Assembly: GCA_002366595.1 (NCBI GenBank)
Contig: DFBK01000011.1
Location: 13,540-77,539 of the forward strand
Direction of reading: 5' to 3'
Length of the DNA stretch: 64,000 nucleotides
DNA from: Anaerolineales bacterium UBA3082
GTDB lineage: Bacteria > Chloroflexota > Anaerolineae > UBA7937
Shown: positions 46,701 through 63,313 of the stretch, piece after piece
Position numbering within the stretch: position 1 is the stretch's first letter
Layout: each line of letters starts with the position of its first letter
Program-made: the position numbers and the translations under genes
The notes under the pieces: model-generated
Databases searched by the model: none
Told to the model about the DNA's origin: nothing
The model's input: the letters and a program-made list of their open reading frames with translations, nothing else

Positions 46701-47366
46701 CTAATAGTTGCTGCCCGACAGCACATACCAAGCCGCACCGAAGAGGAGTTTGATATCAAGCCAGAGGGACCAGTTATCAATGTACTCCAGGTCAAGTTTG
46801 ATCCACTCTTTGAACTCTTTGGGCTTGCCTCGGACGTGCCAGAGGCAAATCATGCCGGGGGTGACGCTGAGTTTGCGCCGTTGCCACTCTTCAAAATGTT
46901 CCCACTCCGCAGGACCGACTGGGCGGGGGCCGACTAGGCTCATGTCGCCTTTGAGGACGCTCCAGAGTTGGGGCAGTTCATCCAGGCTGAACTTGCGTAA
47001 GACGCGGCCCACGGGCGTAACCCGCGGGTCATTTTTTAGTTTGAAGGTGGGGCCGTTCCTCTCGTTGTATTGCCAGAGGTCTTTCTTCAGTCCGTCGGCG
47101 TTGACGACCATGGTACGGAGTTTGTAGCCGGTGAATCTTTTGCCGCCTTTTCCAATCACAACCCATTGATAGAGAACAGGACCAGGTGAGGTAATCTTGA
47201 TAACTGCGCCGATAGCGAGCAGAAGCGGAGTTAAGATAACCAACGACATGGCAGAAATACCCACATCAAGTATCCGTTTCACACCCAATTGCCATCGAGA
47301 AGCAAGCAGACGTGTCTGACCAAGATGCCTCAGGGGCATTTTCTCTGGAGACACATCATGCAGCAT
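46701..47366 (-). CDS. Small monotopic phosphoglycosyltransferase (PglC/WcaJ-C-terminal-like sugar transferase, Bac_transf)
   Basis: 'KRILDVGISAMSLVILTPLLLAIGAVIKITSPGPVLYQWVVIGKGGKRFTGYKLRTMVVNAD...DELPQLWSVLKGDMSLVGPRP' is the complete Bac_transf signature in a 221-aa protein. Confidence 0.9.
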   Translation of the reverse strand: MLHDVSPEKMPLRHLGQTRLLASRWQLGVKRILDVGISAMSLVILTPLLLAIGAVIKITSPGPVLYQWVVIGKGGKRFTGYKLRTMVVNADGLKKDLWQYNERNGPTFKLKNDPRVTPVGRVLRKFSLDELPQLWSVLKGDMSLVGPRPVGPAEWEHFEEWQRRKLSVTPGMICLWHVRGKPKEFKEWIKLDLEYIDNWSLWLDIKLLFGAAWYVLSGSNY

Positions 47367-48588
47367 GCTGCCGCTCCTTCCGCTTTTTCTCTGTTACACC
47401 ACCTTGACCTACGTTATCTTGTTGATGCAGGATCTTGTGATAGAACTTCTCTAACTGAGTAGTGAGCATTTCCCACGAAAGTTGCTCTTCTGCTATCCGC
47501 CTGGCATTGGAGCCCATTTCCTCCCGCAAGCCTTGATCTTCCAGGAGAGATAGCGTTGCTCTGGCAAAGCCTTGAGGATTATCATTGGCCAACAAGCCGA
47601 TATTGTGCTCTCTGAACAACACCGATACATCACCCACCGGACAGGTTATGATTGGTCTGCCTACGGCAAGGTAATCGTTTATCCTTGACGGCCACCTCGC
47701 TTGGTTACTAGTAGTGTTGCAGAGAGGAAGCATTAGTATGTCACAAGCGGCGAGATATCTAACCAAATTCTCGTAATCGACGTAACCGGTTTCTATCACG
47801 GCGGTAGCGCTAATTTCGTGTAGCGCGATATTTGCTCTATGATTGCCAATCATAATCAACTTGCAGTCGCTATGACGCTTATGAATAACCGCGAAGGCAT
47901 TTAAGAGGAGTGCAGCGTCCTTCGGCTGCAATACCCCCAAATGGCCGAGTAAAGGAGCCTCGAGAGGGAGGCCGAGGGCCCGTCGCGCCTCGAACTGGTC
48001 TAGTGGTCTGATCCGCTCAACGTCTGAACCTTGAGGAATCCTCATGATGGTGCTTTCATTCACCTGCAGGGAGAGCGCGCGCTGATAGAGCGCTTGACTG
48101 ATCACTGTAGTGCCATCTGCATACTTGCGAAAGGCTTCCTCGAAAAAGGTTTCTATCGGAGCTAGCATGCGCCACAGCAGTTGATTTGGTCGCTCATAGA
48201 TTGTCCCACCTCTGCCCCACCAGTCCGCCCAATCCAATACGAGTTTGCTTTGCTGCATGGTTTTGTGGTAAAGCGCCGGAAGAATGACCGCAGGTCGTGA
48301 ATCGAACGCATGAACAAGGTCGAAAGACCGATCATGAACATATGCTATGCGATTCAGCGTGTCCCAAGGATCCCAACCTGATCGGGTGACTCCCCAAAGG
48401 AGGTCAGGCGTCTCAAACACCTTTAGGCCTTCAATGACCTTCTCCCTAAACCCGTAGCGCAAAGTAGGAGAGATTGTCAGTAGCGTGACCCGATGCCCTC
48501 GCCGCGCTAGGTGTCGACCGAAGTGATAGGCTCGAAAGAAGGTACCACCGCGCCAGGCAACATTGTGGTTGAGCATCAAGATGCGCAT
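47356..48588 (-). CDS. Glycosyltransferase family 4
   Basis: 'MRILMLNHNVAWRGGTFFRAYHFGRHLARRGHRVTLLT' is a GT4 N-domain. The C-terminal domain has 'LLGHLGVLQPKDAALLLNAF' and 'PLCNTTSNQARWPSRINDYLAVGRPIITCPVGD'. Start taken at the internal Met abutting the upstream stop; the longest ORF extends to 48681. Confidence 0.8.
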   Translation of the reverse strand: MRILMLNHNVAWRGGTFFRAYHFGRHLARRGHRVTLLTISPTLRYGFREKVIEGLKVFETPDLLWGVTRSGWDPWDTLNRIAYVHDRSFDLVHAFDSRPAVILPALYHKTMQQSKLVLDWADWWGRGGTIYERPNQLLWRMLAPIETFFEEAFRKYADGTTVISQALYQRALSLQVNESTIMRIPQGSDVERIRPLDQFEARRALGLPLEAPLLGHLGVLQPKDAALLLNAFAVIHKRHSDCKLIMIGNHRANIALHEISATAVIETGYVDYENLVRYLAACDILMLPLCNTTSNQARWPSRINDYLAVGRPIITCPVGDVSVLFREHNIGLLANDNPQGFARATLSLLEDQGLREEMGSNARRIAEEQLSWEMLTTQLEKFYHKILHQQDNVGQGGVTEKKRKERQHAA

Positions 48589-48589
48589 A

Positions 48590-49759
48590 TCACGCTCGCG
48601 CTGCTTCTTCCAGAATCTCGAGAGTGCGGGCAGCGCTTCGTTTCCAAGTGTAATCTTTCGCCCTCTGTCGTCCACGCACAATCAAGCTCTGGTGCAAGGA
48701 TCGATCATGCAGTACACGTTCCATGCCATCGGCAATAGAGTCCTCGTCAAGTGGATCCACCAACACGGCGGCGTCTCCGGCCAATTCGGCCATGCTGCCG
48801 CTATTTGAAGTCACGACCGGACAGCCGCAGGCCATAGCTTCCAAAGCGGGATATCCGAAGGTCTCGTAGAGCGATGGGATCACCGCCAAATCAGCGCCCA
48901 AGTAGGTGGCTGCTGCCAAGTGATGATCCAGCCTATCAGTAAATACCACATCCTCTAGCACACCGGCCTGCTTGGCTACCATTCGCAGTTCATCAAATGA
49001 AACGCTGATCTCGCTGCCCACCAGAAGTAGGACATGGCGCAGGTTTGTGCGTCGTTTCAACAAGCCGAAAGCACGAATTAAGCGAGCGTGATTCTTGTAG
49101 CCATAGGTTGACGATACATACAAGATGTACGGTCGGCCTGCGGTTAGTTCAGCGCCCACTCGTCGCTCCGGGGCATCCTGCGGCACCTCTGCCAGCCTCC
49201 AGATATCCCATGAAAGTCCATGCGGCACAATACTTACTTTCTCTGCTGGCACTCCCGTCCAGTGCACAAGATCACGCTTGGAATGTTCCGTAAAGATGAT
49301 GACACTTACCGCTTTTTTCAGAGACAATGGCAACATGTAGCGCAGGTAGGCCCCGCGCAATCGCCCATAAGCCTCTGGCATTTCGTAGAACTGAAGGAAT
49401 TGCACTGCCAGCACCACGGGGGTCTTGGTTAGCAAAGGCGCTACTGTTGCAGTAGCAAAGAATACATCCAGCCGTTGACTGGCAATAGCAGCAGCCAACC
49501 CAGTTTGCTGGTAGAGAACACGCGGTGGGCGACTAACCGGAACGCCGGGGAGCCTCACTATTTCGACGTTCGACGGAATTGTCTCCAGCACTGGGTCTGC
49601 CCAAGCTGGCGTAAATAGAATGAATTGATGCTGAGGGCCTTGGATGACAAACTCTGTCAACAGTGATTGTAGATACACTCGCATTCCGCCCGGTCCCTGC
49701 CGGCTTGTCGCTTCTCCAGGCGAGATATTGTCTATGCCAATGCGTAGAGAACGGCTCAT
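48590..49759 (-). CDS. Glycosyltransferase family 4
   Basis: 'YILYVSSTYGYKNHARLIRAF' and the 'PSLYETFGYPALEAMACGCPVVTSNSGSMAELAGDAAVLVDP' Glycos_transf_1 core (E-x7-E). Confidence 0.85.
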   Translation of the reverse strand: MSRSLRIGIDNISPGEATSRQGPGGMRVYLQSLLTEFVIQGPQHQFILFTPAWADPVLETIPSNVEIVRLPGVPVSRPPRVLYQQTGLAAAIASQRLDVFFATATVAPLLTKTPVVLAVQFLQFYEMPEAYGRLRGAYLRYMLPLSLKKAVSVIIFTEHSKRDLVHWTGVPAEKVSIVPHGLSWDIWRLAEVPQDAPERRVGAELTAGRPYILYVSSTYGYKNHARLIRAFGLLKRRTNLRHVLLLVGSEISVSFDELRMVAKQAGVLEDVVFTDRLDHHLAAATYLGADLAVIPSLYETFGYPALEAMACGCPVVTSNSGSMAELAGDAAVLVDPLDEDSIADGMERVLHDRSLHQSLIVRGRQRAKDYTWKRSAARTLEILEEAARA

Positions 49760-51509
49760 CGCTTACGCAACAAGAATGAGCCTAAGCTGAGGTACTCTAG
49801 GCCGGAGTTGGAGAACACGTGCAAGGCGTCAGCGACATTGCACACCACTGGCTCCCCATGTAAGTTATACGAAGTGTTGAGCACCGCGCCAATTCCGGTG
49901 AGTTTTTCGAACTGCTTGATCAGCGCGTAATACGCTGGGTTCCACCGCTCTTCGACAATCTGCGGCCGCAGTGTCATATCATATGAGTGCATCGCCGCTC
50001 GCAGTTCGCGCTTTGCTCGAGCGGTGGAATGGAACGCCAAGATCATGTAAGGCGCTGGGACATTCTTTGGGTTGATCAGGTAATCATGTGCTCGTTCAGC
50101 CAAGATGCTCGGTGCGAATGGCATCCAAAAGTCGCGGCTCTTGATCTGGTCATTGATCACCCGTACGATATCAGGGTTAGATGGATGAGCCAGAATGCTG
50201 CAGTTGCCAAGTGCCCGTGCGCCCCATTCCATCCGCCCGTCGCGACGGGCCACGACTTTTCCTTCCCTAGCAGTTGTGCTACGTGTTGGATCATGTCGCC
50301 CGGTTTCTCGATGATGTATTGCGCAGCCAGGTTATGATCGCGTATGTAACGCTCGATGTCCGCGTCGGTATACTGGGGCCCCCAGTACAAATCGCGAATG
50401 GATTCGCCCTCCCAGGGGAGACCTTGGCGCTCGCAACATTGTTTATAGCCGTAATATGCCGCACCAATTGCGCCGCTTTCGTCGCCACAGCTTGGGAAGA
50501 TGAATAACTCCTCCACCTCGGGCATTTCCATCACGCACATATTCGCTTTGACATTCATGAATACGCCACCAGACAGGACGACCGTCCGGATCCCGGTTGC
50601 GGCAATGGCATTCTGGACCAACTTGACGATCAGCTCCTCAATTAACCGTTGAATCGCCCCAGCAATGGAGTCGAACCGGTGTCCCCTCAGCCGCTCTTGG
50701 AGATAATACGGGACCAATTGGCTGCGCACCTTCACACGCAACGAGAGAGTGTCGTCAACCAAGCCTATGAGTTCAGCAAAAACAGGGTAGGTCTTATCTA
50801 TGTTGTACTCGCTGCAGTATGGCGCCAGCCCCATCACCTTGTATTCGTGCTCAAGTGGTTTCATCCCCATGTACTCAGTAATCTGGGAATACAAGTGTCC
50901 CAGTGAGTTGGTATCATCAATCTGTGCAATCCGGGTTAGCATGCTGTCTTTGGCGACACTTATCGTTCCGGAGAGACCGTCGCCTTCACCGTCAAGCGTG
51001 ATGACAAGCGATGGTTTGCCAATGAACGGGCTGCCATACCAACAATAAGCATGGGCAGTGTGGTGATCCACAAACAGAATGCGATCCTCCGGAACGGGCA
51101 ACACCTCCAGAAGGGGTTTCACCCTGTCACCGGAGGCCAGAGCAGTGCCGATTCTCTGGACTGCACGCCGACCCGCTGTGCCAACTGGCCTCAACGACGG
51201 TAGCCGGTATTCGAGGCGCCTCATCCATACTCGAGGAGTGTGAGAGATATGGGAGAGACCTCGCTTGAACTCGCTTCTGACCATGGATCCCAGGAACGCC
51301 CGGTGACCCAGGAAACAAACTAAATCCACGTCGCCTGGGCCAATGGCTGAAGTCTCTATCAGCCACTTGACAGCGCGCCTGGGGAAACCAGTTTCGTTCT
51401 TGATCCGCGTGAACCGCTCCTCGCTCACGCAGGCGATCACCCTCCCATCCTGGAGAAGGCACGCAGTCGCCAGGTGACCATCATTGATTCCGAGAATGTA
51501 CATGTTCAA
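49756..51509 (-). pseudogene. Carbamoyltransferase (NodU/CmcH family) interrupted by a single frameshift
   Basis: The N-terminal ORF (50157-51509) reads 'MNMYILGINDGHLATACLLQDGRVIACVSEERFTRIKNETGFPRRAV', the NodU/CmcH N-domain. The C-terminal ORF (49756-50253) reads 'RRDGRMEWGARALGNCSILAHPSNPD...', the conserved EFGPRALGNRSIL region. The two frames overlap over ~100 bp. Near 50262-50270 one frame gives 'LGKEKSWP' and the adjacent frame gives 'GKVVARRDG', consistent with a 1-nt indel. Confidence 0.75.
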
Positions 51510-51575
51510 TCTTCTCTCGAATGTTACCTGTAATTACCAGGTGATTGCCGTCCCCATCCGAATACACTCGCCCGT

Positions 51576-53330
51576 TCATTTCGCATCGGTCGGTTGGTCA
51601 CACTCACGAGCCCTCGTTTCAGAGGTGTCTACCTTGACGATGTAATACTTAATCGTGCCAATATTGACTTGATATACGATCTCGGTAATCGGGATTCCTC
51701 TCCACATTGATGAGGTCATCGGCTGAATCTTATTGTTGTCAGCAAGATATTGAATTCCCTGCAATTGCACGAAGCACGCTAACTGATTGCGCTCCAAATA
51801 CCTCAGAAACTCATAGCTATTGACCAGCCCATCCAGGTTTGTGATGCGCCGATGGCTGAAGTAGCCCAACACGCCTGCGTTCCAGGAACCTACCACAGAG
51901 TCAGGGGGGAGGTTCTTATCAATCCATTGGGCCGCCAGATAATTGGCCTCCGATGCCTCCACGTTAGGATATACGGGCCGCTGAGCATCAGAAAGCCAGA
52001 GGGGCAAGATAATCACAGCCAATAGTCCTACAGCGCGACCAGCCCAAACGGCTGCCGTGTTGCTTTTGAGCCAACATTTTGCGAATTGCCACAATAGGCG
52101 TAGAGTGGACGCTCCTAGAAAAGTCAAGACCATATATTCAGGCACCAGCCACCACCATGTCCCACTAGTAACTAGGAATGATGGGAACAAGATGACGTAG
52201 GCTCCAAAGTGCAAAAGAGTAAACAGGAATAGAAGCCAATTGCGCCTAAAGCTCTTTGATTCTCTTCTAACTATCTCTGAGGACGACTGCAATCTGCGTG
52301 CACCATAAACCAAAACACTCGCTGCAATCAACAAACTTGAGATCAAGGCCAAAAGGAGCATCCATCCACCGCTGCTTGGATTAGTGAGAGCAGCGTAGAA
52401 TGTTGGAAACAACAGTCTCACCCCTCCACTCATGAACGAACGAGGCATAGCGAATGTCCCAAATAAATGTCCAACTAGATATAGGGTCGCTGCGACTGCC
52501 ATCTGGAGAGCAAAGAGTAAATAATTCATACCTCCAAGTTCGCGGATAAGCATCTCAGTTTCCAGAAGTTTTGCCGCCCCACTAACTGGTAGTAAATGAC
52601 CGAAGTAGACTTGGTTAATGAGAAGATAAGGCACAATCACTACTGCACAAGGAGCAACGATCAGTCCGGAGACCCGGATGCGTTCTGTCCATCCTTTGGG
52701 CCATGTCTTCCATAATAGAGTGATCCACACTATCGGCATCAACAGGTACGCGTCCGTTCGCGCCAGAAAAGTAAATCCCACTAGCAACCCGAGCAGAATC
52801 AACTGCTTATGCTTTGTGGAAACACCATTCGCACGAAACTCTTTTACGTAGTAATAGCTCGTAGCGCCCAGTAACATTGCATACAGAGGGCTCTCCATCC
52901 CCGCAAGCATCTTGGTAACTAGTCCGGGGGAGAACAACCAGATCCAAGCTACAACAATGGCAATGCGTTTGCCGCCAACAATGCGCGCCAGGGCATACAG
53001 GAACCAAGCAGACGCTATATGAATAAGGGCATTTGTCACTGCAAAGATACGCACTTGGGTGGTTGGATCGGAGACTCCAAACCATGTAGACAGCTTCGTC
53101 ACTGCAAGAATAGTTAGGAACCATAGAGGTTGAACCCCGTTCGTCAAATTCACACCATCAAAGGTCAATCTTCCACTGTTCAAGTAATTTCGCCCGATCT
53201 GAAAGTAATAGAAGGCGTCGTCAATGCGCATCAAGTAGGAGCGGTCTTGCATCCAGATGAAGACAAGATAGATCACCAGGGCGACAGCCATACCAAATTG
53301 AACCAGGAAATCGTCCTTGCGACTTGTCAT
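51576..53330 (-). CDS. Polytopic membrane protein, GT-C-like putative glycosyltransferase (584 aa from internal start)
   Basis: ~13 hydrophobic helices. An early loop carries 'DDAFYYFQIGRNYLNSGRLTFDG', a DD/DE-type GT-C loop-1-like motif. Start chosen at 'MTSRKDD' so that it abuts the upstream GT4 stop; the longest ORF extends to 53573. Confidence 0.5.
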   Translation of the reverse strand: MTSRKDDFLVQFGMAVALVIYLVFIWMQDRSYLMRIDDAFYYFQIGRNYLNSGRLTFDGVNLTNGVQPLWFLTILAVTKLSTWFGVSDPTTQVRIFAVTNALIHIASAWFLYALARIVGGKRIAIVVAWIWLFSPGLVTKMLAGMESPLYAMLLGATSYYYVKEFRANGVSTKHKQLILLGLLVGFTFLARTDAYLLMPIVWITLLWKTWPKGWTERIRVSGLIVAPCAVVIVPYLLINQVYFGHLLPVSGAAKLLETEMLIRELGGMNYLLFALQMAVAATLYLVGHLFGTFAMPRSFMSGGVRLLFPTFYAALTNPSSGGWMLLLALISSLLIAASVLVYGARRLQSSSEIVRRESKSFRRNWLLFLFTLLHFGAYVILFPSFLVTSGTWWWLVPEYMVLTFLGASTLRLLWQFAKCWLKSNTAAVWAGRAVGLLAVIILPLWLSDAQRPVYPNVEASEANYLAAQWIDKNLPPDSVVGSWNAGVLGYFSHRRITNLDGLVNSYEFLRYLERNQLACFVQLQGIQYLADNNKIQPMTSSMWRGIPITEIVYQVNIGTIKYYIVKVDTSETRARECDQPTDAK

Positions 53331-53331
53331 A

Positions 53332-54543
53332 TCACCTATGCTCTGCAGCGACCCAATTGGAAAGTGTTTCATAGACTTGTGCGACGCGGTCATAATAGGT
53401 CTCCCAGGTAAAATTGCGGACATACTCAAGCGCCGATCGTCCCATCTCTTTGCGCAACCGTTCATTAGTGTAGAGCTGCGAAATTCTATCTTGTAGAGCC
53501 CTAACGTCACGAATAGGCACAACGAACCCATCTTGACCATCGCGCGCGATAGAGCCGGCGTTCTCACTAACAACGAGTGGCAGCCCGCAGGCCATGGCTC
53601 CGTAGGTTACCAGGGCTGAACCTTCTACTAGCGAGGGCAACACAAAGACCGAAGCATTGCTAAAGTACGTATGAAGCTCTAATTGGGGAACGTGGTCAAT
53701 GTGCCGGTAGGTACCCGCATACTCTTTGAGCAAGGGTAGTATTTCAGGTGTCGGTGCCCCGATGAGCACGAGTTCACTGTGGGGAAGTCTCAGTCGCCGA
53801 TAGGCCTCTAAGAGGTACTGCACGCCTTTGCGTAACTGGAGGGTACCCGCAAACAGAATCCGAAAACAGTCATCGCTTTTTGAAGACGGCTTATAGACGC
53901 GCTGATCGTAACCGTAAGGAACCAGAACGAGTTTGCTCTTTTCTACCCCTGCCCGAACGCAACCGTCAAATACGGTTTGTGACCCAACCAGAACCCGATC
54001 AGCCATGGCAATCTCTGCACACGTTCGAGCAGTCCACAAATCCTGAGAGGCATCAGGAGGAACATCATAGCGTTTCCATTCTTCCTCCATAACGGCATTC
54101 GCCACCACAGGATGCATAATCTTCAAGTCCAGGATGCAGGAAGCGCCCGCCATCTTTGCCCTACGCATTGATAAAAGTGAACAACCGTCAAAGCCATGGA
54201 AAATATCACTCTCTGCAGCATAGCGCGCTGCCCAGTAATCAAACAGCACATTCTGTATGTAGTACCAGGGCAACCTGCGACCTCCGATTGCTGGTGTCTT
54301 CTTAGCCAGGCGTGCTGCCGCCTCTGCCCACCAGAAGCTCCTAACTTTGTCCAGTTGCAGTTCTGGCAGATTCCGATTCAATCGTCGTGCCTGGGGTAAG
54401 GCTAACGATAACAATTTACCGGAAAGCGATCCCGGCTTGTAGTAGACAGTTGTCAGCAGGAACTTGAGATAGCCGGCTCTCTGTGCAGCCAGGGCGGTAT
54501 GATAAGCTTGGTTCTTGCTAGCATTTGCGACGATCACATTCAT
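53332..54543 (-). CDS. Glycosyltransferase family 4
   Basis: C-terminal 'FRILFAGTLQLRKGVQYLLEA...LPSLVEGSALVTYGAMACGLPLVVSENAGSIARDGQDGFVVP' Glycos_transf_1 pattern. Confidence 0.8.
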   Translation of the reverse strand: MNVIVANASKNQAYHTALAAQRAGYLKFLLTTVYYKPGSLSGKLLSLALPQARRLNRNLPELQLDKVRSFWWAEAAARLAKKTPAIGGRRLPWYYIQNVLFDYWAARYAAESDIFHGFDGCSLLSMRRAKMAGASCILDLKIMHPVVANAVMEEEWKRYDVPPDASQDLWTARTCAEIAMADRVLVGSQTVFDGCVRAGVEKSKLVLVPYGYDQRVYKPSSKSDDCFRILFAGTLQLRKGVQYLLEAYRRLRLPHSELVLIGAPTPEILPLLKEYAGTYRHIDHVPQLELHTYFSNASVFVLPSLVEGSALVTYGAMACGLPLVVSENAGSIARDGQDGFVVPIRDVRALQDRISQLYTNERLRKEMGRSALEYVRNFTWETYYDRVAQVYETLSNWVAAEHR

Positions 54544-55979
54544 AGTTCTATTTCGTGCTTTCGTTCAGTCCTATTCCGGAAGTCTACTTGGGCTTTATAG
54601 TCGAGTTTCTGTGCCGTCAATCCCATGGCCACAAGCGCCCATACATATCCACCGAAAGAGTAGTAGTAAAACAAAACGTTGTCTGTAGCAGCACCAACCA
54701 GGTAAGTAACCAGGGATCCAAACGCGGCCAGCGTCAAGGTTCGGGCCAAGTTGCTTCGAGATAACCGATAGGCTCGCCAACAAGTGTATAACAACGCAAG
54801 AAGGCTTAGGACGAAGAGCGTAGTGCCAATCAGCCCGACCTCACTCAGCAGGCGCACATACTCGCTATGAACAAGTCCGCCGGTTACCTCGAAGCTAGCG
54901 CTCCCAATATGGCCAAACAGCTGAGAGATGATCCCGAGTCCGGATCCAATTAGGGGACTGGGCTCGAAAAAAAGATTCAAGGCTGTAGTCCATAAACCCA
55001 CTCTATCTCCGAAAGACCCAACAACGAGTTCCTCCAGCGAGCGAGAGGTCGTCAACCAAGTGAAGAGATTCAGACCCCCAAGGCGTGTCAACCATTCTGG
55101 CAGTATTGCTAGCAGTCCGAGAAGTATGATGAGGAGAAGAGATGCCTGAATATACTGTTTGCGTAGCGCCAGAATACTCAGTAAGGCCACGCCTGCTCCC
55201 AACATGACGATGCGGACTCCGGTCCAGATAATCAGGCCTGAGAACACAATTATAAGCAGCGTATAGATGACTCTTCTGAAATTGGTTTGAGCGTTCAATA
55301 ACAGAAAGTAGCCTAGAATAACAAGGGTGCCAAAGAAGAAGGGGAGCGAAACCAGTCGGTGGGAGTCCTTTATATACAAGGTGTAACGTCCTGCATAGGC
55401 GAGCGCCAGCGTTATGACCTGGAATGCCAATCCACTAAAGATTAACGCTGCAACAAGGAGACGCAAGTCGCGCGCAGACAGACCGGCGGCAAGCACAAGC
55501 GCAAATAACCAAAACGGATAGAGCAAATAGAGCCAGGTCTTCACTCCAGCAAATGGTGCCGGAGATCTGAACAACATAGCCAGGCCAAAGAGAAGAAATG
55601 CTATATACAACTTCTGGGTGGCTATTGCCTTGACAATGCGGCCAGGTCCAATCGTCAGGCTCGGCAACAACAAGAAGACAAAGGCCCTCCAGCCGCCCTC
55701 GTAGATACCAGCGATGTAAACCTTCTCGCCCAGTATATAGGGTGAAACGTCCAGGGCGCTACTAATGAAGATCAGAACGAACATCAGCGCAGGTCGCAAC
55801 TGTCCAAGTCGTAATATTAGCACTGTGGACAATATCAATAATCCAATTGCAGACATCTGCAATGGGGCTACTGCGGTCGCTGCGCCAGCCGCAATCATAA
55901 GGATCAGACTAACTGTTACCAAGCTAGCAGGAGCAGTGCTCGGTTTCCAAACTGGATGTAGGGACATTGCCTCGCCCAT
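54540..55979 (-). CDS. O-antigen polymerase/ligase-like membrane protein (Wzy_C domain)
   Basis: ~12 TM helices. A periplasmic loop carries 'GLVHSEYVRLLSEVGLIGTTLFVL', the Wzy_C H-x-x-[YF]...E-x-G-x-x-G signature. Confidence 0.7.
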   Translation of the reverse strand: MGEAMSLHPVWKPSTAPASLVTVSLILMIAAGAATAVAPLQMSAIGLLILSTVLILRLGQLRPALMFVLIFISSALDVSPYILGEKVYIAGIYEGGWRAFVFLLLPSLTIGPGRIVKAIATQKLYIAFLLFGLAMLFRSPAPFAGVKTWLYLLYPFWLFALVLAAGLSARDLRLLVAALIFSGLAFQVITLALAYAGRYTLYIKDSHRLVSLPFFFGTLVILGYFLLLNAQTNFRRVIYTLLIIVFSGLIIWTGVRIVMLGAGVALLSILALRKQYIQASLLLIILLGLLAILPEWLTRLGGLNLFTWLTTSRSLEELVVGSFGDRVGLWTTALNLFFEPSPLIGSGLGIISQLFGHIGSASFEVTGGLVHSEYVRLLSEVGLIGTTLFVLSLLALLYTCWRAYRLSRSNLARTLTLAAFGSLVTYLVGAATDNVLFYYYSFGGYVWALVAMGLTAQKLDYKAQVDFRNRTERKHEIEL

Positions 55980-56478
55980 CTACAATACCTCGATGTTCAC
56001 TAACAACCGCTCAAATCGTGTCCAGTTTTAGGGGGCACTTCAGGCACTATTGCATTAAATCGGACTTTTGAACGAGCAACAGTATATCTAACGGTTTCTG
56101 TTCAATCCTATCCGATCGTGTGGACAAAACCCGGTTCTCCAGATGGCAGATGAATAGTAGGGGAAGAGGGAGTCCGATTCTGTGGCACATCCTTAGAACC
56201 CACCGGCTCCATCGAAGAAGAGCTACGTCCTCCTTGATAATTGAAAACCCTGCTAACTCGAGCTCGTGAACTATCTCTTCCCTAGAGAAGCCTTGCACCA
56301 CATGATCCAGATGATAGAGAGGGGGCGGTAAAAGCGGCACACTTATCAGAAGCCTGCCATGGGGACGAAGAACCCGCCACATTTCTCGCAGTGCATCCTG
56401 GCGTGCCGCCAAATGTTCGATAACCTCTATGCACTGCAGCATATCAAACGATTGGTCTGCAAGAGGCAACCTCTCCGC
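55975..56478. repeat. Direct repeat copy A (~504 bp, ~95% identical to 57715-58218)
   Basis: Both copies begin 'cccatctacaatacctcgatgttcactaacaaccgctcaaatcgtgtccagtttta' and run colinearly through '...cgattggtctgcaa.aggcaac.tctccgc' with scattered mismatches. The repeat covers the 3' half of a methyltransferase ORF plus ~70 bp downstream. Confidence 0.9.
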
Positions 56479-56619
56479 TCTGGCGAAATGGATGAAGATG
56501 TTCCCTGCTATGTGGGTCTCCACCTTCGCCTCTTTCCATTCTCTGCGGCGGAGAGCACTTTCTGGAAGGTTCTTCTCCAGACAGAGAAGTTCGGCTCTAC
56601 CACGCCTTCTCCTGTCCAT
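56047..56619 (-). pseudogene. Truncated SAM-methyltransferase paralog (lacks motif I), remnant
   Basis: The 190-aa ORF's C-terminal 150 aa are near-identical to the full MT at 57788-58621 ('CIEVIEHLAARQDALREMWRVLRPHG.LL.SVPLLPPP.YHLDHVVQGFSREEI.HELELAGFSIIKEDVALLRWSRWVLRMCHR.GLPLPLLFICHLENRV'). It lacks the N-terminal 'LDVGCGGG' SAM-binding motif. Confidence 0.7.
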
Positions 56620-56676
56620 GAGGCAGTACGCCGTGTGCCATTCTCCATATCGAGAAACCCACGTCGTTCAACTTGG

Positions 56677-57651
56677 TCAGCCATAAGTCCGCGCCCGCTG
56701 CTTATTGAGCCAGAGCCAGTATCGCAGACATCCCTCTTCGAGGCCGATGTCTGGTTTCCATCCAAGTACTTGTTGGGCCAGGGTGATGTCTAGTACGTTG
56801 ATAGGGACATCAAAAGGCCGACTTGCGCTGTAGTTCACCACCAACTTCCGTCCCATAACTCCTTCGACCACTTCGAGCAGATCATTAAGGCTGATGCCTC
56901 TCCCGCTACCTACGTTCATTAGTCGGGTGGAGGGCATCCGCTCAAGCAGCTTACAAACTGCTACACCCAAATCGTCAACGTGGAAGTAGTCTCGGATAAC
57001 GCTGCCGTCTCCCCAGATCTCAAAGGGCTGTTCTGTTAGAGCTGCGTTCAACATAGCTGCTATTACCCCTTGCCTGCGCCCAAGATCTTGACGCTCACCA
57101 TAGGGATTGGCACAACGCAGGATGTAGTATCTCACCCCGTGCAGATGGTAAAAAAGGTACAAATACTTCTCAACAGCAAGATTTGTGATACCATATGAGC
57201 AGACGGGGCTTGTGGGATGGCTCTCCGATATTGGATTACTCTGTGGTATACCATAGACTGTGCCCCCGGACGAGATGTAGATGATCACGCTGTTTCCCAG
57301 CTTTGTTGCTTCTTCGAGCAACCCCAGGGCTCCTACTATCGTAGTCTGAACATCTTGCACAGGGTCAAGATTGGACTCAGCAGGCAAGCTTGTACCGATG
57401 CAATGAATCACAACTTCAACGCTTTGCAGAGCAGCTCTAAGGGCCTTGCGATCAAGGAAATCACCCACAACGAAGTCAATCTGTTGATCAATTTCTCGCC
57501 GTCCCGTAAGCGGTTTTGCTGTGCGACTGAATACCCTTACAGGGTAACCCTGACACACCAGTTCCTCAGCAATGTGAGATCCGATGAAGCCGGCTCCCAA
57601 GACCAGACAGTTCTGCTTCTTTGGCTGTCTAGTATCAGCCTCGGAAGTCAT
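56677..57651 (-). CDS. NAD-dependent epimerase/dehydratase (extended SDR)
   Basis: 'NCLVLGAGFIGSHIAEELVCQGYPVRVFSR' Rossmann motif, 'YISSGGTVYG' and 'YGITNLAVEKY' (Y-x3-K). Confidence 0.8.
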   Translation of the reverse strand: MTSEADTRQPKKQNCLVLGAGFIGSHIAEELVCQGYPVRVFSRTAKPLTGRREIDQQIDFVVGDFLDRKALRAALQSVEVVIHCIGTSLPAESNLDPVQDVQTTIVGALGLLEEATKLGNSVIIYISSGGTVYGIPQSNPISESHPTSPVCSYGITNLAVEKYLYLFYHLHGVRYYILRCANPYGERQDLGRRQGVIAAMLNAALTEQPFEIWGDGSVIRDYFHVDDLGVAVCKLLERMPSTRLMNVGSGRGISLNDLLEVVEGVMGRKLVVNYSASRPFDVPINVLDITLAQQVLGWKPDIGLEEGCLRYWLWLNKQRARTYG

Positions 57652-57714
57652 TGTGCTATTCCCTTGACAGCAGGTTTTTCCCTGGTAGCGAGTGCCCTTT
57701 GATATTGGTACATA

Positions 57715-58218
57715 CCCATCTACAATACCTCGATGTTCACTAACAACCGCTCAAATCGTGTCCAGTTTTAGGGGGGCGCTTCACGCGCTATTGCACCAAA
57801 TCGGACTTTTGAACGAGCAATAGTATATCTAACGGTTTCTGTTCAATCCTATTCGATCGTTTAGAGAAAACCCGGTTCTCCAGATGGCAGATGAATAGTA
57901 GGGGAAGAGGGAGTCCGGTTCTGTGGCACATCCTTAGAACCCACCGGCTCCATCGAAGAAGAGCTACGTCCTCCTTGATAATTGAAAACCCTGCTAACTC
58001 AAGCTCGTGAAGTATCTCTTCCCTAGAGAAGCCTTGCACCACATGATCCAGATGATAGAAAGGGGGCGGTAAAAGCGGAACACTTACCAGAAGCTTGCCA
58101 TGGGGACGAAGAACCCGCCACATTTCTCGCAGTGCATCCTGGCGTGCCGCCAAATGTTCGATAACCTCTATGCACAGCAGCGTATCAAACGATTGGTCTG
58201 CAAAAGGCAACATCTCCG
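57715..58218. repeat. Direct repeat copy B (partner of 55975-56478)
   Basis: See copy A. This copy is the 3' half of the intact methyltransferase gene plus the downstream spacer. Confidence 0.9.
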
Positions 58219-58621
58219 CCGACGCTTGCGCGACAAATGCCTTCGAAAGACGTTTTGCACAAAGTCGCCACTGCGTAAGTTCTACATGTTTCCTGTCGAA
58301 ATCTATCCCTCCTACCCAACTAGAGCGGGAAGCAAGCGTTTCAAGCATATACATGCCCCCGCCGCACCCAACATCAAGACATCGCCCCAAATCTTCCTGC
58401 GGTAACAACCGCTCGACGATGGGCATCTGAGCCGCCCCTCGAACCGTGTTGCCATTTGCCAGGAATAAACGTCCCATTACCTTGGCCCACTCACCTATGC
58501 GCCAACGTAGGGTGATCTTGGGCTGGCGTCGTGCTATTGAATCATCTTGTTTGAAACCCCGTTGTGTCATCGAAGGCTTACACCTTTCATACTGGCGAGA
58601 GTAGACTGGTGAGCAATGCAC
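57788..58621 (-). CDS. Class I SAM-dependent methyltransferase
   Basis: Motif I 'CLDVGCGGGMYMLETLA', acidic post-I 'GIDFD', and motif II/III 'FDTLLCIEVIEHL'. Confidence 0.8.
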   Translation of the reverse strand: MHCSPVYSRQYERCKPSMTQRGFKQDDSIARRQPKITLRWRIGEWAKVMGRLFLANGNTVRGAAQMPIVERLLPQEDLGRCLDVGCGGGMYMLETLASRSSWVGGIDFDRKHVELTQWRLCAKRLSKAFVAQASAEMLPFADQSFDTLLCIEVIEHLAARQDALREMWRVLRPHGKLLVSVPLLPPPFYHLDHVVQGFSREEILHELELAGFSIIKEDVALLRWSRWVLRMCHRTGLPLPLLFICHLENRVFSKRSNRIEQKPLDILLLVQKSDLVQ

Positions 58622-58646
58622 CCTCAGTTATTAGCAGAGGTGCACC

Positions 58647-60491
58647 TCACTCACTACACTGGCCAACAAAACCAGTGGGTAACCGCGCGAACGCACCTAA
58701 ACCTGGACACGTCTTTCCCAGTAGTCTTTGCCAATCTGCGACCGAGAACCTGGTAGTCTCGACTCGTCTGAGATGCATCTGCTGAAACCAGACATCACCT
58801 ATGCCATAATTCATCACCGCGATATAGGGATCAAGTGGCGTTAGCTCGGGATTCAAAATCAAAAAACTAGCCCTCACCCAGTCCCCATCCGTTGCTGCCA
58901 ACTGATAAAAAACAGTACTGTTGTTTCGCTTATCCACCACGGTAATGGCAGCTTTTTGTTGGCCCGCAACATCCGTCCGGTAGCCAAAAGTAAGCAGATT
59001 AATAGACCCTGGGGCTAACTGAACCGGTGCACGAAACACAGCGCGCGGGAAGTGGATGTTTCCGGACACATCCCGGGTCCAAACCCCCTGGATACGCACA
59101 GAAGGGAGGCCGTTGAGAACCTCTGCATAGTCTAGTCCCCCAACGAAGAATCGGGCTTGTTGAAAACTGTCGTCAGGCCAGATTAACCACTGCCAAGCAT
59201 CTGGTTGATCTTGTTGATCCCTTCTTGCTCCGAAGGCACCATTTGCCAGTATATCTTGCCCTAACTGTATTTGAATCTGTGCCTGCCCCAAGAGAGAAGT
59301 CAGACGGGTGGATTCGTTGTACTCTTTGTCAAATTCTGCCTGCAATGAGAACGCCGAAGCCTGATCTCCGGTCGATTGATAAGCCTGAACCAGCAATTCA
59401 GTTCCTCGAAGGTCTGCCGGGCGTAGCTGGTGATAGCGTTCAAGCAGTTCGGCGGCACGCTTCCAATGTCCCACTCTTCCCAGCACTTCGCCAGCCACTA
59501 GATAAATCTGAGCATTTTCGGCAGCAACTTCCATGGATGAGGACACGGTTGAATCAACCTTCGTAGCGCTCGGTTCAGGCGAAAGCTTTAAGTTGAGCAC
59601 GTGCCAGATGGCACTGTTGGGAAATCGTGCCAGCATCTCGACAACAAGGTTCTGTGCGTCCTGTCGCCGTCCGCGCCAATCTAATAAGGAAGTTAGCTTA
59701 TAAACATCGTTCTCACCCCATATTCGCCGATCAAGCAGAGCCAGTGCCACGCTACCCCAGTCTTCTGGTGCCTCCAGGGTGGAAGGCAGAGTGAAATACC
59801 TGAGTTCAGTGCGCAGCGCCTCCGCCTCTTCGGTCTTACCCCTGAGGCTTAGAACCTGTTCGAGCCGATACAGACTCTGTAAATTGTTGTACTTGATCTC
59901 CAGCGATTTTCTGAAAACATCCTCTGCTTTAGCAAGTTGTCCTTGTTCCAGGTACTGCTTGCCACCCATCACGAGGCTGGACAGTAGCCGTTCCCGGGCC
60001 CAAGGCCATTTTTCTGGCAACCGATCCCAGAAAATCTCGTACCAATAGGCCGCAGAAGGATAATTAGCCACGACAAATTGATGGTTGGCGATTGCTAGGG
60101 CACTAAAAAGATCCAAATCGGACGCTTTCATCTGGTTAGCGGTCAGCCAGTCTTCCATGTCACGATCTTGTCGAATGGCGTAAGACAACACCTGTGCGTC
60201 CTTGACCCTTATGCCCTCAGGATCTACTATCCTGGCAGCCGACAAAACGTTAACAACTCGCAATAGGCCACCGCTATGTACATCACTTGCCAGCCCTTGT
60301 CCGATGAAAAACATATGCTCGTCAGGAGCCGGGGGACGTACAGCGATGTAATCCATAAGGGTGTGCAGACTATCTATCCGCAATGCGTTGACGAACCCAA
60401 GGCGCACGATAGGCCTGACGTTCAACAGAACCAAGATGCCTATAGCGATAAACATTAAGCGTACACGAACAGATAGATACTTACTCCGCAT
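58647..60491 (-). CDS. Membrane-anchored TPR-repeat protein (614 aa)
   Basis: N-terminal TM ('LMFIAIGILVLLNV') followed by multiple TPR-like hairpins ('YLEQGQLAKAEDVFRKSLEIKYNNLQSLYRLEQVLSLRGKTEEAEAL', 'AQIYLVAGEVLGRVGHWKRAAELLERYHQL', 'LLVQAYQSTGDQASAFSL'). The C-terminal ~200 aa form a beta-rich domain. Confidence 0.7.
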   Translation of the reverse strand: MRSKYLSVRVRLMFIAIGILVLLNVRPIVRLGFVNALRIDSLHTLMDYIAVRPPAPDEHMFFIGQGLASDVHSGGLLRVVNVLSAARIVDPEGIRVKDAQVLSYAIRQDRDMEDWLTANQMKASDLDLFSALAIANHQFVVANYPSAAYWYEIFWDRLPEKWPWARERLLSSLVMGGKQYLEQGQLAKAEDVFRKSLEIKYNNLQSLYRLEQVLSLRGKTEEAEALRTELRYFTLPSTLEAPEDWGSVALALLDRRIWGENDVYKLTSLLDWRGRRQDAQNLVVEMLARFPNSAIWHVLNLKLSPEPSATKVDSTVSSSMEVAAENAQIYLVAGEVLGRVGHWKRAAELLERYHQLRPADLRGTELLVQAYQSTGDQASAFSLQAEFDKEYNESTRLTSLLGQAQIQIQLGQDILANGAFGARRDQQDQPDAWQWLIWPDDSFQQARFFVGGLDYAEVLNGLPSVRIQGVWTRDVSGNIHFPRAVFRAPVQLAPGSINLLTFGYRTDVAGQQKAAITVVDKRNNSTVFYQLAATDGDWVRASFLILNPELTPLDPYIAVMNYGIGDVWFQQMHLRRVETTRFSVADWQRLLGKTCPGLGAFARLPTGFVGQCSE

Positions 60492-61638
60492 CGCGAATTG
60501 AGTGTCCTAAGAGCCAGTTGGCGCAGTCTTCAATGTTTTGGACCGATGGGTTGAGTTTGTACGTAATAGACCTCGTACCAGCAAATGAATTGTATAGATT
60601 CAACAAAGAGAAAGGCGCAACAGCCTTAGCATACCGCTGCAGACGCCTGTAGACCAAGTAAGCCCGCACTCGAAGAGGAAGCTTGCGCAACTTCTCTTCA
60701 GAAGCCGCTTCCTCCACGCCTAGCTCCAACCTTCGTTTTCGCCAAAGGCGTAACTGGTAATCACAGCCTGCGTAGTACTCTCTCAAATTTTTTAGTTCAT
60801 ATGGACAGTGGTTTAAGTACCGCAGCTTAACTCTCTGTAATGTTGCATAATGTCCGTTAACAAAGAAGTTGCCCGCCAACGGTAGCATAATTCCCCTCAT
60901 CACTTCCGGGTCTTTCAGCACCGCGTAGCTCTGCTTCCGTGAATCTGTGAAAATATCACTCACCCCGATTGATGTAGAACCTCTGCCCAACAGAACGAGT
61001 TGCTTACGAATTTCAACACATCTGGAGCAGTGCAGCAGGGCAGAGGCGAGACAATAGTAATCTGGGTGAATAGGTTGATACGGGCCTTCTTCTTCAGATA
61101 TCTGTTCCAGGAGATGCTTGGCATAGCAAACTGGCTGTGTTGGGAAAGGAACGTCGAGTGTGGTGTATATGCTCTCAAGCAACGGCGCAGTATCCAGCAA
61201 GCATGTCGTGGCGTCACCTGTCTGAATCACCAAAGTGTTCCTTTGCCGCTTGACAAAGAAGTCGTTAGGATAATATACGGCATTGTAAGAAGACAGGAGG
61301 GACGGCCCGTTCCATTCTCGGATGGCTTTTGCATAGCTTTCTAAACAGTCAGGGAGCAAGAAGTCATCATCTCCGATACAAATCAGGTATTGCCCTGTAG
61401 CCTGGCGGTATGCATTATTCCAGTTGGCAACGCCCGGAACATCACAGCCAGTATTCACATACTTGATCCGCCGATCTGCGAAGCCGGTCACCATCGAACC
61501 CGTTCCATCAGAAGAATTATTGTCAGAAATCACAAGTTCAAAATCATGCCAGGTCTGCTGCAGAACAGACCGGATGGCAAACTGAAGCAAGTGTGCTCTA
61601 TTCTTTGTAGGGATCAACATCGAGAAGGTGGGTTCCAT
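60481..61638 (-). CDS. Glycosyltransferase family 2
   Basis: 'FSMLIPTKNRAHLLQFAIRSVLQQTWHDFELVISDNNSSDGT' and DxD 'ICIGDDDFLLPD'. Confidence 0.85.
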   Translation of the reverse strand: MEPTFSMLIPTKNRAHLLQFAIRSVLQQTWHDFELVISDNNSSDGTGSMVTGFADRRIKYVNTGCDVPGVANWNNAYRQATGQYLICIGDDDFLLPDCLESYAKAIREWNGPSLLSSYNAVYYPNDFFVKRQRNTLVIQTGDATTCLLDTAPLLESIYTTLDVPFPTQPVCYAKHLLEQISEEEGPYQPIHPDYYCLASALLHCSRCVEIRKQLVLLGRGSTSIGVSDIFTDSRKQSYAVLKDPEVMRGIMLPLAGNFFVNGHYATLQRVKLRYLNHCPYELKNLREYYAGCDYQLRLWRKRRLELGVEEAASEEKLRKLPLRVRAYLVYRRLQRYAKAVAPFSLLNLYNSFAGTRSITYKLNPSVQNIEDCANWLLGHSIRDAE

Positions 61639-61694
61639 AGGCTGTTGTAACTAACTTTCAGACAGGTTCACTTCCGGTTACACGGATGTTGTTG

Positions 61695-63074
61695 TCAAGT
61701 AGTGAGTTTCTGATCGATTGCGGCTCTACACATTAATGGATAGAGAATAGTAGCCGGAACCGATAGAAAGACAAAAGCAACCATGATGCCTACAACCCCC
61801 ATCTGCCGCCCCAGGCATATTGAAATCGGCACGACCAGAATGTTGGTCAGAACTCCCAACACAAGTTGGCCTCGTAATAAACCAAACCCATTGAGCACAA
61901 TCGAGTAGGTGCTGTTCCATACGTACATGATTGTCCATATAGCCATCATGACAACCAGACCCGTATTGTCAATCTGCTTTCCAGTCCATATCCATAACAA
62001 CGGTCGGTAGAAAGCTACCATGACCAAGCAGCCACCAGTCATCAGTGCCACGCTGGCCCAGGCCAGGCGGCGCATGGCAGATCTAGCCCAGGGCCAATCG
62101 CCAGCGGCCTGTGCGTCTGTGAACGCAGACCAGAAAGGCGTTATGATGGATAGGTGAAAACCAATTAACAAGAAGAACAACCGCTGCACCACATTGAAAT
62201 CTCCTGCCGCATCTAGGCCCAGCACTTGGCTGGTTATATAGGTGTTCGAATACATTCCAATTGCAGATAGCATCGAAAGAAGCCAAAACTGCAAGCCAAG
62301 GCCCGCCAGGTCGCGGATGCAGGCTACAAGCTCATTCCTGCCAATTTGGACCAGACGCCAGCCCCGACTTCTTTGAAAAACGATCAGTCCCGCTAATCCT
62401 GATAGCGTAAATGATCCGAAGAATACTGACGTAACCACGTAAAACGGAGCCCGGAGCGCAATCGCTAATGACACGAAGATCAAAGCTCCCAGTTTGGGCA
62501 ACGCATCAAACGGTGCATTCCAAAACGAACTCTGGTATGCAAAAAAACCGGCGCTGTATAGCTGTAAAGGAATAAGTAGCAAGATCAAGTTTGCAATGAC
62601 TGCCAGCCAGCAGACTCCCTGAGTCGCGAGCCTCAAGTCGGCGATATTGAAGACGGATGTCCAGGGGATGATTGGAGACAGGGTTGTCAGAAGAATACCG
62701 ACGAGCACTACGAGGAAAAGAAGTGTGTATAGGGTCGAAAAGAAGTACTGGCGGGCTGTCTGGTCTTTGGATGCGTCGCCGGCCCATGCGGCCAGCTTGT
62801 TCCGTAGCCCGTTACTTACTCCAAAATCCAGGCTTCCACTTAGAGCCATGAAAGAGGTGAGCACGGCGTACAACCCAAATTCCTCACGTGAGAAGTAGCG
62901 GGTGATCATGCCCAACATGAGGAAATTGGCCACCATGCCCAAAATGCGGCCCCCAACCATCGCCCCAGACCCAGCAACTGCATTGCGTAATCTTATATTC
63001 TGAGATAAAGTGGCCTTGAGAGCGAAGCCGAACTGATTCGTCATAAACAACTTCCTATCAGCGCTGTGTATCAT
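61695..63074 (-). CDS. wzx: Oligosaccharide flippase (Wzx, MOP superfamily polysaccharide biosynthesis protein)
   Basis: ~12-14 TM helices. The N-terminal 'ALKATLSQNIRLRNAVAGSGAMVGGRILGMVANFLMLGMITRYFSREEFGLYAVLTSFMAL' is the Polysacc_synt family beginning. The likely start is the internal 'MTNQFGF' (~63044). Confidence 0.8.
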   Translation of the reverse strand: MIHSADRKLFMTNQFGFALKATLSQNIRLRNAVAGSGAMVGGRILGMVANFLMLGMITRYFSREEFGLYAVLTSFMALSGSLDFGVSNGLRNKLAAWAGDASKDQTARQYFFSTLYTLLFLVVLVGILLTTLSPIIPWTSVFNIADLRLATQGVCWLAVIANLILLLIPLQLYSAGFFAYQSSFWNAPFDALPKLGALIFVSLAIALRAPFYVVTSVFFGSFTLSGLAGLIVFQRSRGWRLVQIGRNELVACIRDLAGLGLQFWLLSMLSAIGMYSNTYITSQVLGLDAAGDFNVVQRLFFLLIGFHLSIITPFWSAFTDAQAAGDWPWARSAMRRLAWASVALMTGGCLVMVAFYRPLLWIWTGKQIDNTGLVVMMAIWTIMYVWNSTYSIVLNGFGLLRGQLVLGVLTNILVVPISICLGRQMGVVGIMVAFVFLSVPATILYPLMCRAAIDQKLTT

Positions 63075-63313
63075 TCTTACTTAGAGTTTCCGAGCGGCTG
63101 AGCGCGTGCTAATCACTTTGTTTCTCTTTGCCATGGACAAAACAAGGATGGAGTCGAGCGTGCAACGCAACGTTCGGACGGCGTTCTAGGCCAGCACGCA
63201 CACACTGACCAGCAGATAAGCAGGTTCTTGTGAGCTGGACTCATAGCCCTCGCTTGTATATCATATTTCTCAAAGCGTCATCCCAGCTGTACCGGCTATC
63301 CACCATCAGTGGG

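Follow-up and report, generated by a model that had tools for sequence, protein, structure and literature searches.

A 505-bp direct repeat flanking an epimerase gene in a polysaccharide cluster of an Anaerolineales bacterium, a probable scar of illegitimate recombination

Loci for O-antigen, capsule and exopolysaccharide synthesis are hot spots of gene gain, gene loss and gene relics. Tandem duplication with later trimming is the commonest kind of bacterial rearrangement, and insertion sequences duplicate their target site over a few bp to about 14 bp. In Campbell-type insertion-duplication, a single crossover occurs with a construct that carries the 3′ part of a gene. Homology-facilitated illegitimate recombination usually leads to loss or replacement of recipient DNA and not to its duplication. 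In this process, incoming DNA is joined by homology at one end and illegitimately at the other (PMC3240628). Here we analyse a direct repeat that flanks a sugar-nucleotide epimerase gene in a 64-kb stretch of contig DFBK01000011.1 of Anaerolineales bacterium UBA3082, which is referred to as the window (64,000 nucleotides). One copy of the repeat (copy B) lies in an intact methyltransferase gene (MT-B) upstream of the epimerase gene. The other (copy A) lies in a truncated open reading frame (ORF), MT-A, and borders the gene of a Wzy-like protein. With a probability of about 0.62, we read this arrangement as a fixed and fairly old scar of illegitimate recombination or template switching in a Wzx/Wzy-type polysaccharide cluster, which would have left the epimerase between the methyltransferase and Wzy.

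Self-BLAST of the window aligned the two copies (504 and 505 bp) with 95.6% identity and a bit score of 809. The copies differ by 21 mismatches and one 1-nt indel, and their starts are 1740/1741 bp apart. Self-comparison of the whole window showed that this direct repeat is its sole long repeat besides a tandem array at 19987-20519. An earlier interpretation made without database searches (the sequence-only reading) had described a 504-bp segment of ~95% identity occurring twice, 1740 bp apart, and had proposed self-BLAST as a check; both the repeat and its coordinates hold. Each copy comprises 143 codons of the 3′ part of a methyltransferase gene, the stop codon and a further 72 nt, which consist of a 67-nt spacer and the sequence ATGGG, with GAGGT located 7 nt before the ATG. 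Among the cluster starts inspected, this GAGGT-N7-ATG is the best ribosome-binding site. The same reading was right that each copy holds the 3′ half of a methyltransferase gene and a spacer of ~70 bp ending at a start codon, but the ATG at the end of copy B is not the start of the epimerase: the epimerase ATG follows 68 nt downstream, in another frame. The copies still share identical blocks of 82, 80 and 61 nt. At the 3′ end of the repeat, no difference occurs in the last 61 nt, which follow the spacer variants; the chance of this is about 0.06 at 4.4% divergence. Promoter scan, terminator scan and RNA folding of the duplicated spacer were all at chance level, and Rfam showed no match in the window. 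No inverted repeats were found in 54000-60500 and no transposase domain in the Pfam scan. With neither of these features and with a duplication of 505 bp, the locus does not have the properties of a transposon or insertion-sequence insertion with target-site duplication.

The same arrangement was found in independent assemblies. A 36-kb contig of JGI 3300001749 (L002/L004) is 100% identical to the window over 17.9 kb, and a 400-kb contig of ENA ERZ778604 (L001/L003/L006) has the same two-copy structure. Two more contigs with these genes, of 111 kb and 105.6 kb, came from a protein catalogue. Its four ‘variants’ of MT-A are explained by two alleles and differing start-codon calls. In addition, Logan contigs were used, each of which is assembled from a single SRA run with k=31. 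Coming from the Wzy side, these contigs reach 30 nt into copy A and end at 56004 (55975 plus 29); on the other side, they end at 58146, 30 nt beyond the last copy-specific site (58176). The evidence comes from SRR5324181 and a second run with the same contig, and from SRR1313318 and one similar place. An assembly artefact in the form of a collapsed or expanded repeat had been named in advance as the observation that would overturn the duplication; a chimera of strains would be another such artefact. All sources are indeed short-read metagenome assemblies, and the L001 assembly differs inside the repeat. However, 22 positions distinguish the copies, their four flanks are all different, and the same structure is seen in JGI, ENA and NCBI assemblies. 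Moreover, the Logan contigs of separate runs break off after exactly 30 nt (k-1) of repeat sequence, whichever unique side they start from. A k=31 graph has to branch at these points if the reads contain both copies, which makes an artefact very unlikely. As the duplication held in four long-contig assemblies and at the Logan break points, we give an artefact next to no chance.

Comparison of L001 with the window over 17.3 kb revealed differences at just 17 sites and one indel, all of them in copy A (L001:11174-11678). At these 17 consecutive sites and the indel, which are the equivalents of 58095 to 57776, copy A of L001 carries the alleles of copy B, and it retains copy-A alleles at the four 5′-most sites. 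The tract with copy-B alleles consists of exactly those variant sites that are more than 55 nt away from unique sequence. The NODE_ format of the contig name points to SPAdes, for which we take k=55 to be the default and usual largest value for metagenomes. The tract thus coincides with the sites that a k=55 graph would collapse, which weakens gene conversion as an explanation of the mosaic. Gene conversion and bubble collapse by the assembler explain the mosaic equally well, and we lean slightly to the artefact.

Outside copy A, the sampled strains are identical over at least 17 kb, so the duplication long predates the diversity of the sampled population. It is fixed in the sampled material. 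In the 429 coding nucleotides of the repeat, 13 nonsynonymous and 5 synonymous differences were counted. The resulting ratio of nonsynonymous to synonymous rates (dN/dS) of 0.80, with a dS of 0.05, fits near-neutral drift of at least one copy. When the 13 amino-acid differences were polarised by distant homologues, two sites favoured copy B as ancestral and one favoured copy A.

Just outside both ends of the repeat, DNA identity drops to about 30%, which is the random level. The sequence-only reading had reported weak protein similarity upstream of the repeat (AERLPLADQSFD versus AEMLPFADQSFD). A codon alignment places both peptides at codons 48-59 of MT-A, within the repeat, and the claim therefore falls. 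The 47-63 residues encoded upstream of copy A gave no Pfam match, and hhalign against the methyltransferase-family profile returned a probability of 0.08%, indicating no homology. An exhaustive phmmer search of 1.84 billion representative proteins yielded a single foreign match, P0262, with 79% identity over 28 aa (residues 120-147; E 1.7e-5). This protein belongs to the OmpR family of response regulators and has the domains Response_reg and Trans_reg_C. In nucleotide sequence, window positions 56553-56478 are 89.5% identical over 76 nt to the regulator gene in contigs L012/L013 (L012:2006-2081, E 1e-25). The match breaks off exactly at the repeat boundary, where the regulator reads FIHFAR/GEVSL and the window reads FIHFAR/AERLP, with 1 nt common across the junction. 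The fragment comprises 25 codons that correspond to residues 123-147 of P0262 (the linker); it amounts to neither a receiver domain with its phospho-acceptor Asp nor a winged-helix output domain.

MT-A consists of 22 codons without an assigned origin, 25 codons of the response-regulator linker and 143 methyltransferase codons. It is seen to be a three-part chimera because the stretch upstream of the repeat is not methyltransferase sequence and includes a response-regulator linker. Motif I and post-I of class I methyltransferases dependent on S-adenosylmethionine (SAM) are missing, with an alignment gap across those columns, and MT-A is therefore not a member of this class. It also lacks a receiver domain and a DNA-binding domain. 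That copy A belongs to a 190-aa remnant without SAM motif I had been recognized before, and only a part of the Methyltransf_11 profile was matched. MT-A is best read as a chimeric pseudogene, rather than as a diverged methyltransferase. For two parts of the segment between the copies, its 63-nt head (57652-57714) and 123-nt tail (56554-56676), neither the window nor any of the fetched loci gave a match. At the regulator locus itself, two related metagenome contigs (L012:1-1966 and L014:3635-5611) are 95% identical, with the identity ending about 40 nt short of the segment shared with the window. From there the contigs part within the regulator gene, whose L014 copy looks frameshifted. The gene may be a recombination breakpoint in its own right. 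L014, a longer contig from the organism of the regulator gene, has no DNA in common with the window.

The gene that contains copy B is intact. Its longest ORF encodes 277 aa from a GTG, and gene callers choose the ATG at 58570, which gives 260 aa. MT-B matches the whole Methyltransf_11 profile (1-95 of 95) and has motif I, LDVGCGGG, aligned with the invariant DxGCGxG column, as is characteristic of class I SAM-dependent methyltransferases. The earlier description of an intact methyltransferase at 57788-58621 is thereby borne out. Its nearest full-length homologue has 36% identity. The 614-aa protein encoded just upstream, with only faint TPR similarity, is an orphan: a word-indexed search of 5.8 billion proteins returned only its match to itself.

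The epimerase scores 151.4 bits with the GalE model TIGR01179, below the cut-off of 262.3; it is a member of the broader Pfam Epimerase family (PF01370) and not a GalE equivalog. The closest solved structure is 4zrm, a UDP-glucose 4-epimerase, and the nearest homologues have about 50% identity. The G+C content at third codon positions (GC3) is 0.52, in line with the neighbouring genes, and no sign of a foreign origin of the epimerase alone was seen in GC, GC3 or codon usage. Upstream of the epimerase, the ATG at the end of copy B opens a 23-codon ORF that takes in the 63-nt unique head and whose TGA overlaps the epimerase ATG (ATGA). This arrangement may provide translational coupling to the epimerase or may have arisen by chance, for which a rough estimate is 0.03-0.1. 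The Logan collection has no contig on record that encodes the exact epimerase, and Logan contigs of the same organism cover both flanks. The expected inter-repeat contig of ~1.3 kb is absent from the record, for which the cause may be technical.

On the other side, copy A was previously noted to abut the start codon of the Wzy-like gene, and it does reach 5 nt into the longest Wzy ORF. In the 479-aa form of Wzy, both the start ATG (55979-55977) and a Shine-Dalgarno-like GAGGT lie inside copy A. Gene callers are split between 479 and 414 aa; the first 65 residues of the longer form are hydrophobic and helix-like.

An intact gene, an insert, a 5′-truncated copy and a downstream gene with its native leader together make up an insertion-duplication structure. 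The inter-repeat segment has non-homologous junctions at both ends and a short templated piece of an unrelated gene at one of them. We propose that the ancestral order was methyltransferase followed by Wzy, and that a single complex event of illegitimate recombination or replicative template switching took place. Synthesis would have departed from its template just after the Wzy start site (ATGGG), an epimerase segment would have been copied from elsewhere, then 75 nt of a response-regulator gene, and the original template would have been re-entered 505 nt upstream of the point of departure. Such a step would both insert the epimerase and duplicate 505 bp. The relic copy A would have drifted almost neutrally thereafter. 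As by-products, Wzy would still be translated from its native start, and the duplicate of that site ahead of the epimerase would now open the 23-codon ORF, which ends in ATGA at the epimerase start. The repeats could still recombine through their identical blocks, which would delete the epimerase or convert one copy into the other. The sequence-only reading had likewise suggested insertion of the epimerase with target duplication. This part of its proposal fits the anatomy best, with an intact methyltransferase upstream, a 5′-truncated copy downstream and unrelated sequence beyond both boundaries, but the real structure is messier, with the 76-nt response-regulator fragment between the epimerase and copy A.

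Several points weigh against a single template-switching event. No relative with the ancestral gene order was found in the searched collections. Genome and metagenome contig collections were scanned with the methyltransferase protein and with a 40-nt exact repeat pattern, and nothing was found; nor was any donor sequence. The source of the epimerase segment is unassigned. The gene neighbourhood around the nearest methyltransferase homologue (L008-L011) shows no synteny. As no relative is informative (36% for the methyltransferase, about 50% for the epimerase and none for the TPR-like protein), the direction and number of events are drawn from one sequence. Template events with multiple switches are better documented in eukaryotes than in bacteria. 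MT-A contains no stop or frameshift in its 143 codons, which is expected about half the time with 18 substitutions. The start codon of Wzy is uncertain (479 versus 414 aa), and many genes of the cluster have no Shine-Dalgarno-like motif. Finally, an ancestral order of methyltransferase, epimerase and Wzy would give the same structure through tandem duplication and deletion.

In this last account, the ancestor had the methyltransferase, the epimerase, possibly the regulator relic, and Wzy. A 1740-bp unit of repeat and epimerase segment would have been tandemly duplicated by unequal illegitimate exchange, after which the second epimerase would have been deleted and ATGGG fused in frame to Wzy. 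Such a course would belong to the commonest kind of bacterial rearrangement and agrees with the epimerase having the same composition as its neighbours. Chance also explains a duplicated ATG in the Wzy frame (1 in 3) more easily than a 23-codon ORF ending in ATGA. However, it needs two events plus an earlier one that placed the response-regulator fragment, it implies that Wzy lost its own start region, and no intermediate form is present in any assembly. We regard this course as possible, if rather unlikely, and template switching as the most economical account, although neither of the two is provable from the searched collections. Gene conversion, which the sequence-only reading had offered as the other possible origin, would start from ancient methyltransferase paralogues on both sides of the epimerase, with 3′ halves that were homogenised and a downstream 5′ part that diverged or was truncated. 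The repeat does begin in coding sequence and in frame, local Pfam alignments of MT-A extend 12-18 residues upstream of the repeat, and the run of copy-B alleles in copy A of L001 resembles a conversion tract. Nevertheless, DNA identity is random right outside the boundary, the upstream peptide alone fits no methyltransferase model and is partly a response-regulator fragment, and the repeat extends 72 nt past the stop codon into a spacer, which unrelated paralogues would not have in common. The similarity that had been taken as upstream lies within the repeat. Conversion as the origin requires homology beyond the tract, none of which exists past either boundary; it was rejected and is highly improbable.

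Other explanations assign a present function to the repeat or to MT-A. The repeats might be kept as a recombination device, with exchange between them switching the epimerase and its glycan off in part of the population or continually converting the copies. It is true that direct repeats with long identical blocks flank a glycan-modifying gene, and the L001 mosaic could represent conversion over 320-460 bp in a strain that is identical elsewhere. Against this, the epimerase is present in all four long contigs, and no epimerase-deleted form was found among the assemblies that span the region. The divergence of 4.4% indicates long coexistence without loss or homogenisation, and the L001 tract is as expected from bubble collapse in a SPAdes-type graph with k=55, the value given above. 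Deletion between direct repeats loses DNA and is irreversible; a reversible phase switch was therefore rejected, and phase-variable deletion of the epimerase, as once suggested, gains no support. A recombination device is very improbable. It would be equally surprising if the 190-aa product, or a 158-aa form, were made and functional, for example as a partner or regulator of MT-B. The ORF is open, and an internal GTG with a good AGAGG-N5 site was chosen by two gene callers. The identity of the last 61 nt in both copies could also point to function, but such identity has a chance probability of ~0.06, and neither an RNA structure nor a promoter signal was detected there. The product would lack motif I for SAM binding and post-I, its dN/dS is 0.8, and its N-terminus is a junction of unrelated fragments. 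A combination of ongoing exchange, with the L001 tract as a true tract of 320-460 bp, and a co-opted, translationally coupled 23-codon leader that sets epimerase expression would turn the scar into a control module for glycan variation; to this we give only a slight chance.

Table 1. Features of the repeat region and its neighbours, in window coordinates
Feature	Position	Strand	Content or evidence
GT2 glycosyltransferase	60481-61638	-	
614-aa TPR-like protein	58647-60491	-	
MT-B, intact class I SAM-dependent methyltransferase	57788..58621	-	Methyltransf_11 profile 1-95, E 3.5e-20
Repeat copy B	57715..58219 (505 bp)	-	last 143 MT-B codons, stop, 67-nt spacer, GAGGT-N7-ATGGG
23-codon ORF, MGMYQYQRALATREKPAVKGIAQ and stop	57648..57719	-	putative function; start is the duplicated GAGGT-N7-ATG at the end of copy B
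GalE-like extended-SDR (short-chain dehydrogenase/reductase) sugar-nucleotide epimerase/dehydratase, 324 aa, intact	56677..57651	-	Pfam Epimerase, E 4e-44
123-nt segment from epimerase stop to regulator fragment	56554..56676	-	contains MT-A ATG 56619; no match
OmpR-family response-regulator internal fragment	56479..56553	-	end of alpha5, linker, start of winged helix; in-frame fusion to copy A
Chimeric ORF MT-A, 190 aa	56047..56619	-	Methyltransf_11 positions 39-95 only
Repeat copy A	55975..56478 (504 bp)	-	same segment as copy B; ends 5 nt into the longest Wzy ORF
Wzy_C-family polymerase/ligase-like membrane protein	54540..55979	-	Pfam Wzy_C, E 9e-10
GT4 glycosyltransferase	53332-54543	-	

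The local genes (Table 1) are all on the minus strand and are transcribed in the order GT2, TPR-like protein, MT-B, epimerase, MT-A, Wzy_C and GT4. Throughout the window, ORFs of at least 200 aa that were taken as genes are on the minus strand. Most of those that were scanned with Pfam have functions in glycan synthesis, including many GT4 and GT2 enzymes. Members of the cluster are Wzt (17934-19175), an ABC-2 permease (29231-30040), Wzx (61695-63074), Wzy, WecG and two Bac_transf initiating transferases. Since Wzt and the ABC-2 permease occur in one window with Wzx and Wzy, the ABC-transporter and Wzx/Wzy pathways adjoin. The Wzx/Wzy sub-cluster (~47000-63100) has a GC3 of 0.51-0.58, compared to mostly 0.60-0.75 elsewhere in the window, and in composition looks like a distinct cassette. 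Within it, a carbamoyltransferase (49756-51509) is split, with Carbam_trans_N in a 450-aa ORF (50157-51509) and Carbam_trans_C in an overlapping small ORF of 78, 96 or 134 aa, depending on the pipeline; this may be a frameshifted gene. A 1031-aa ORF of the glycan cluster (7841-10936) showed no Pfam match at E 1e-5. The tandem array noted above has a period of 287 nt and 1.9 copies that are 83% identical. It spans the gap after ORF 19150-19896 into the 3′ end of ORF 20332-21885, neither of which has a Pfam match.

In annotation, ‘chimeric pseudogene’ is the proper label for the 190-aa ‘methyltransferase’; beyond this, the locus carries little weight. It serves as a case in which a scar of gene fragments can mimic a diverged paralogue. 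It also illustrates that signs of gene conversion in a repeat of 95% identity can be produced or masked by an assembler, and differences inside repeats between metagenome assemblies call for caution. If a single multi-switch event did occur, it would be a bacterial rearrangement with templated filler that added a sugar-modifying gene to a polysaccharide locus, which this sequence alone is insufficient to show.

Of the known systems, Campbell-type insertion-duplication shares the repeat structure of this locus: direct repeats of the homology segment flank the insert, the upstream copy is complete and the downstream copy 5′-truncated, and the downstream gene has its native leader. In contrast to it, no vector or circular donor is evident here, the insert is a patchwork with a 75-nt fragment of a regulator gene, both junctions are with non-homologous DNA, and the repeats have diverged by 4.4%. 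Template switching with templated filler, of the type known as fork stalling and template switching/microhomology-mediated break-induced replication (FoSTeS/MMBIR), resembles the locus in its close breakpoints, in the short templated piece of an unrelated gene at a junction, in a microhomology of 0-1 nt and in a duplication that flanks an insertion. However, that class is defined mainly in eukaryotic genomes, whereas here the event is deduced from one sequence without the parental state, and serial independent events would give the same appearance. As in homology-facilitated illegitimate recombination (PMC3240628), foreign or ectopic DNA would have become fixed beside a stretch of homology with an illegitimate junction on the other side, but here both ends of the insert are illegitimate, the homologous stretch is duplicated and no donor is known. 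The locus resembles the gene remnants of O-antigen, capsule and exopolysaccharide clusters in that a glycan-modifying gene has a truncated, non-functional copy adjacent to Wzy in a Wzx/Wzy cassette of distinct composition; unlike these, the locus has no insertion sequence or flanking conserved recombination anchor, and its relic is a chimera of three parts. The repeat and its relic are a fresh instance of a known, ordinary type of event that leaves genomic scars, and not a new system.

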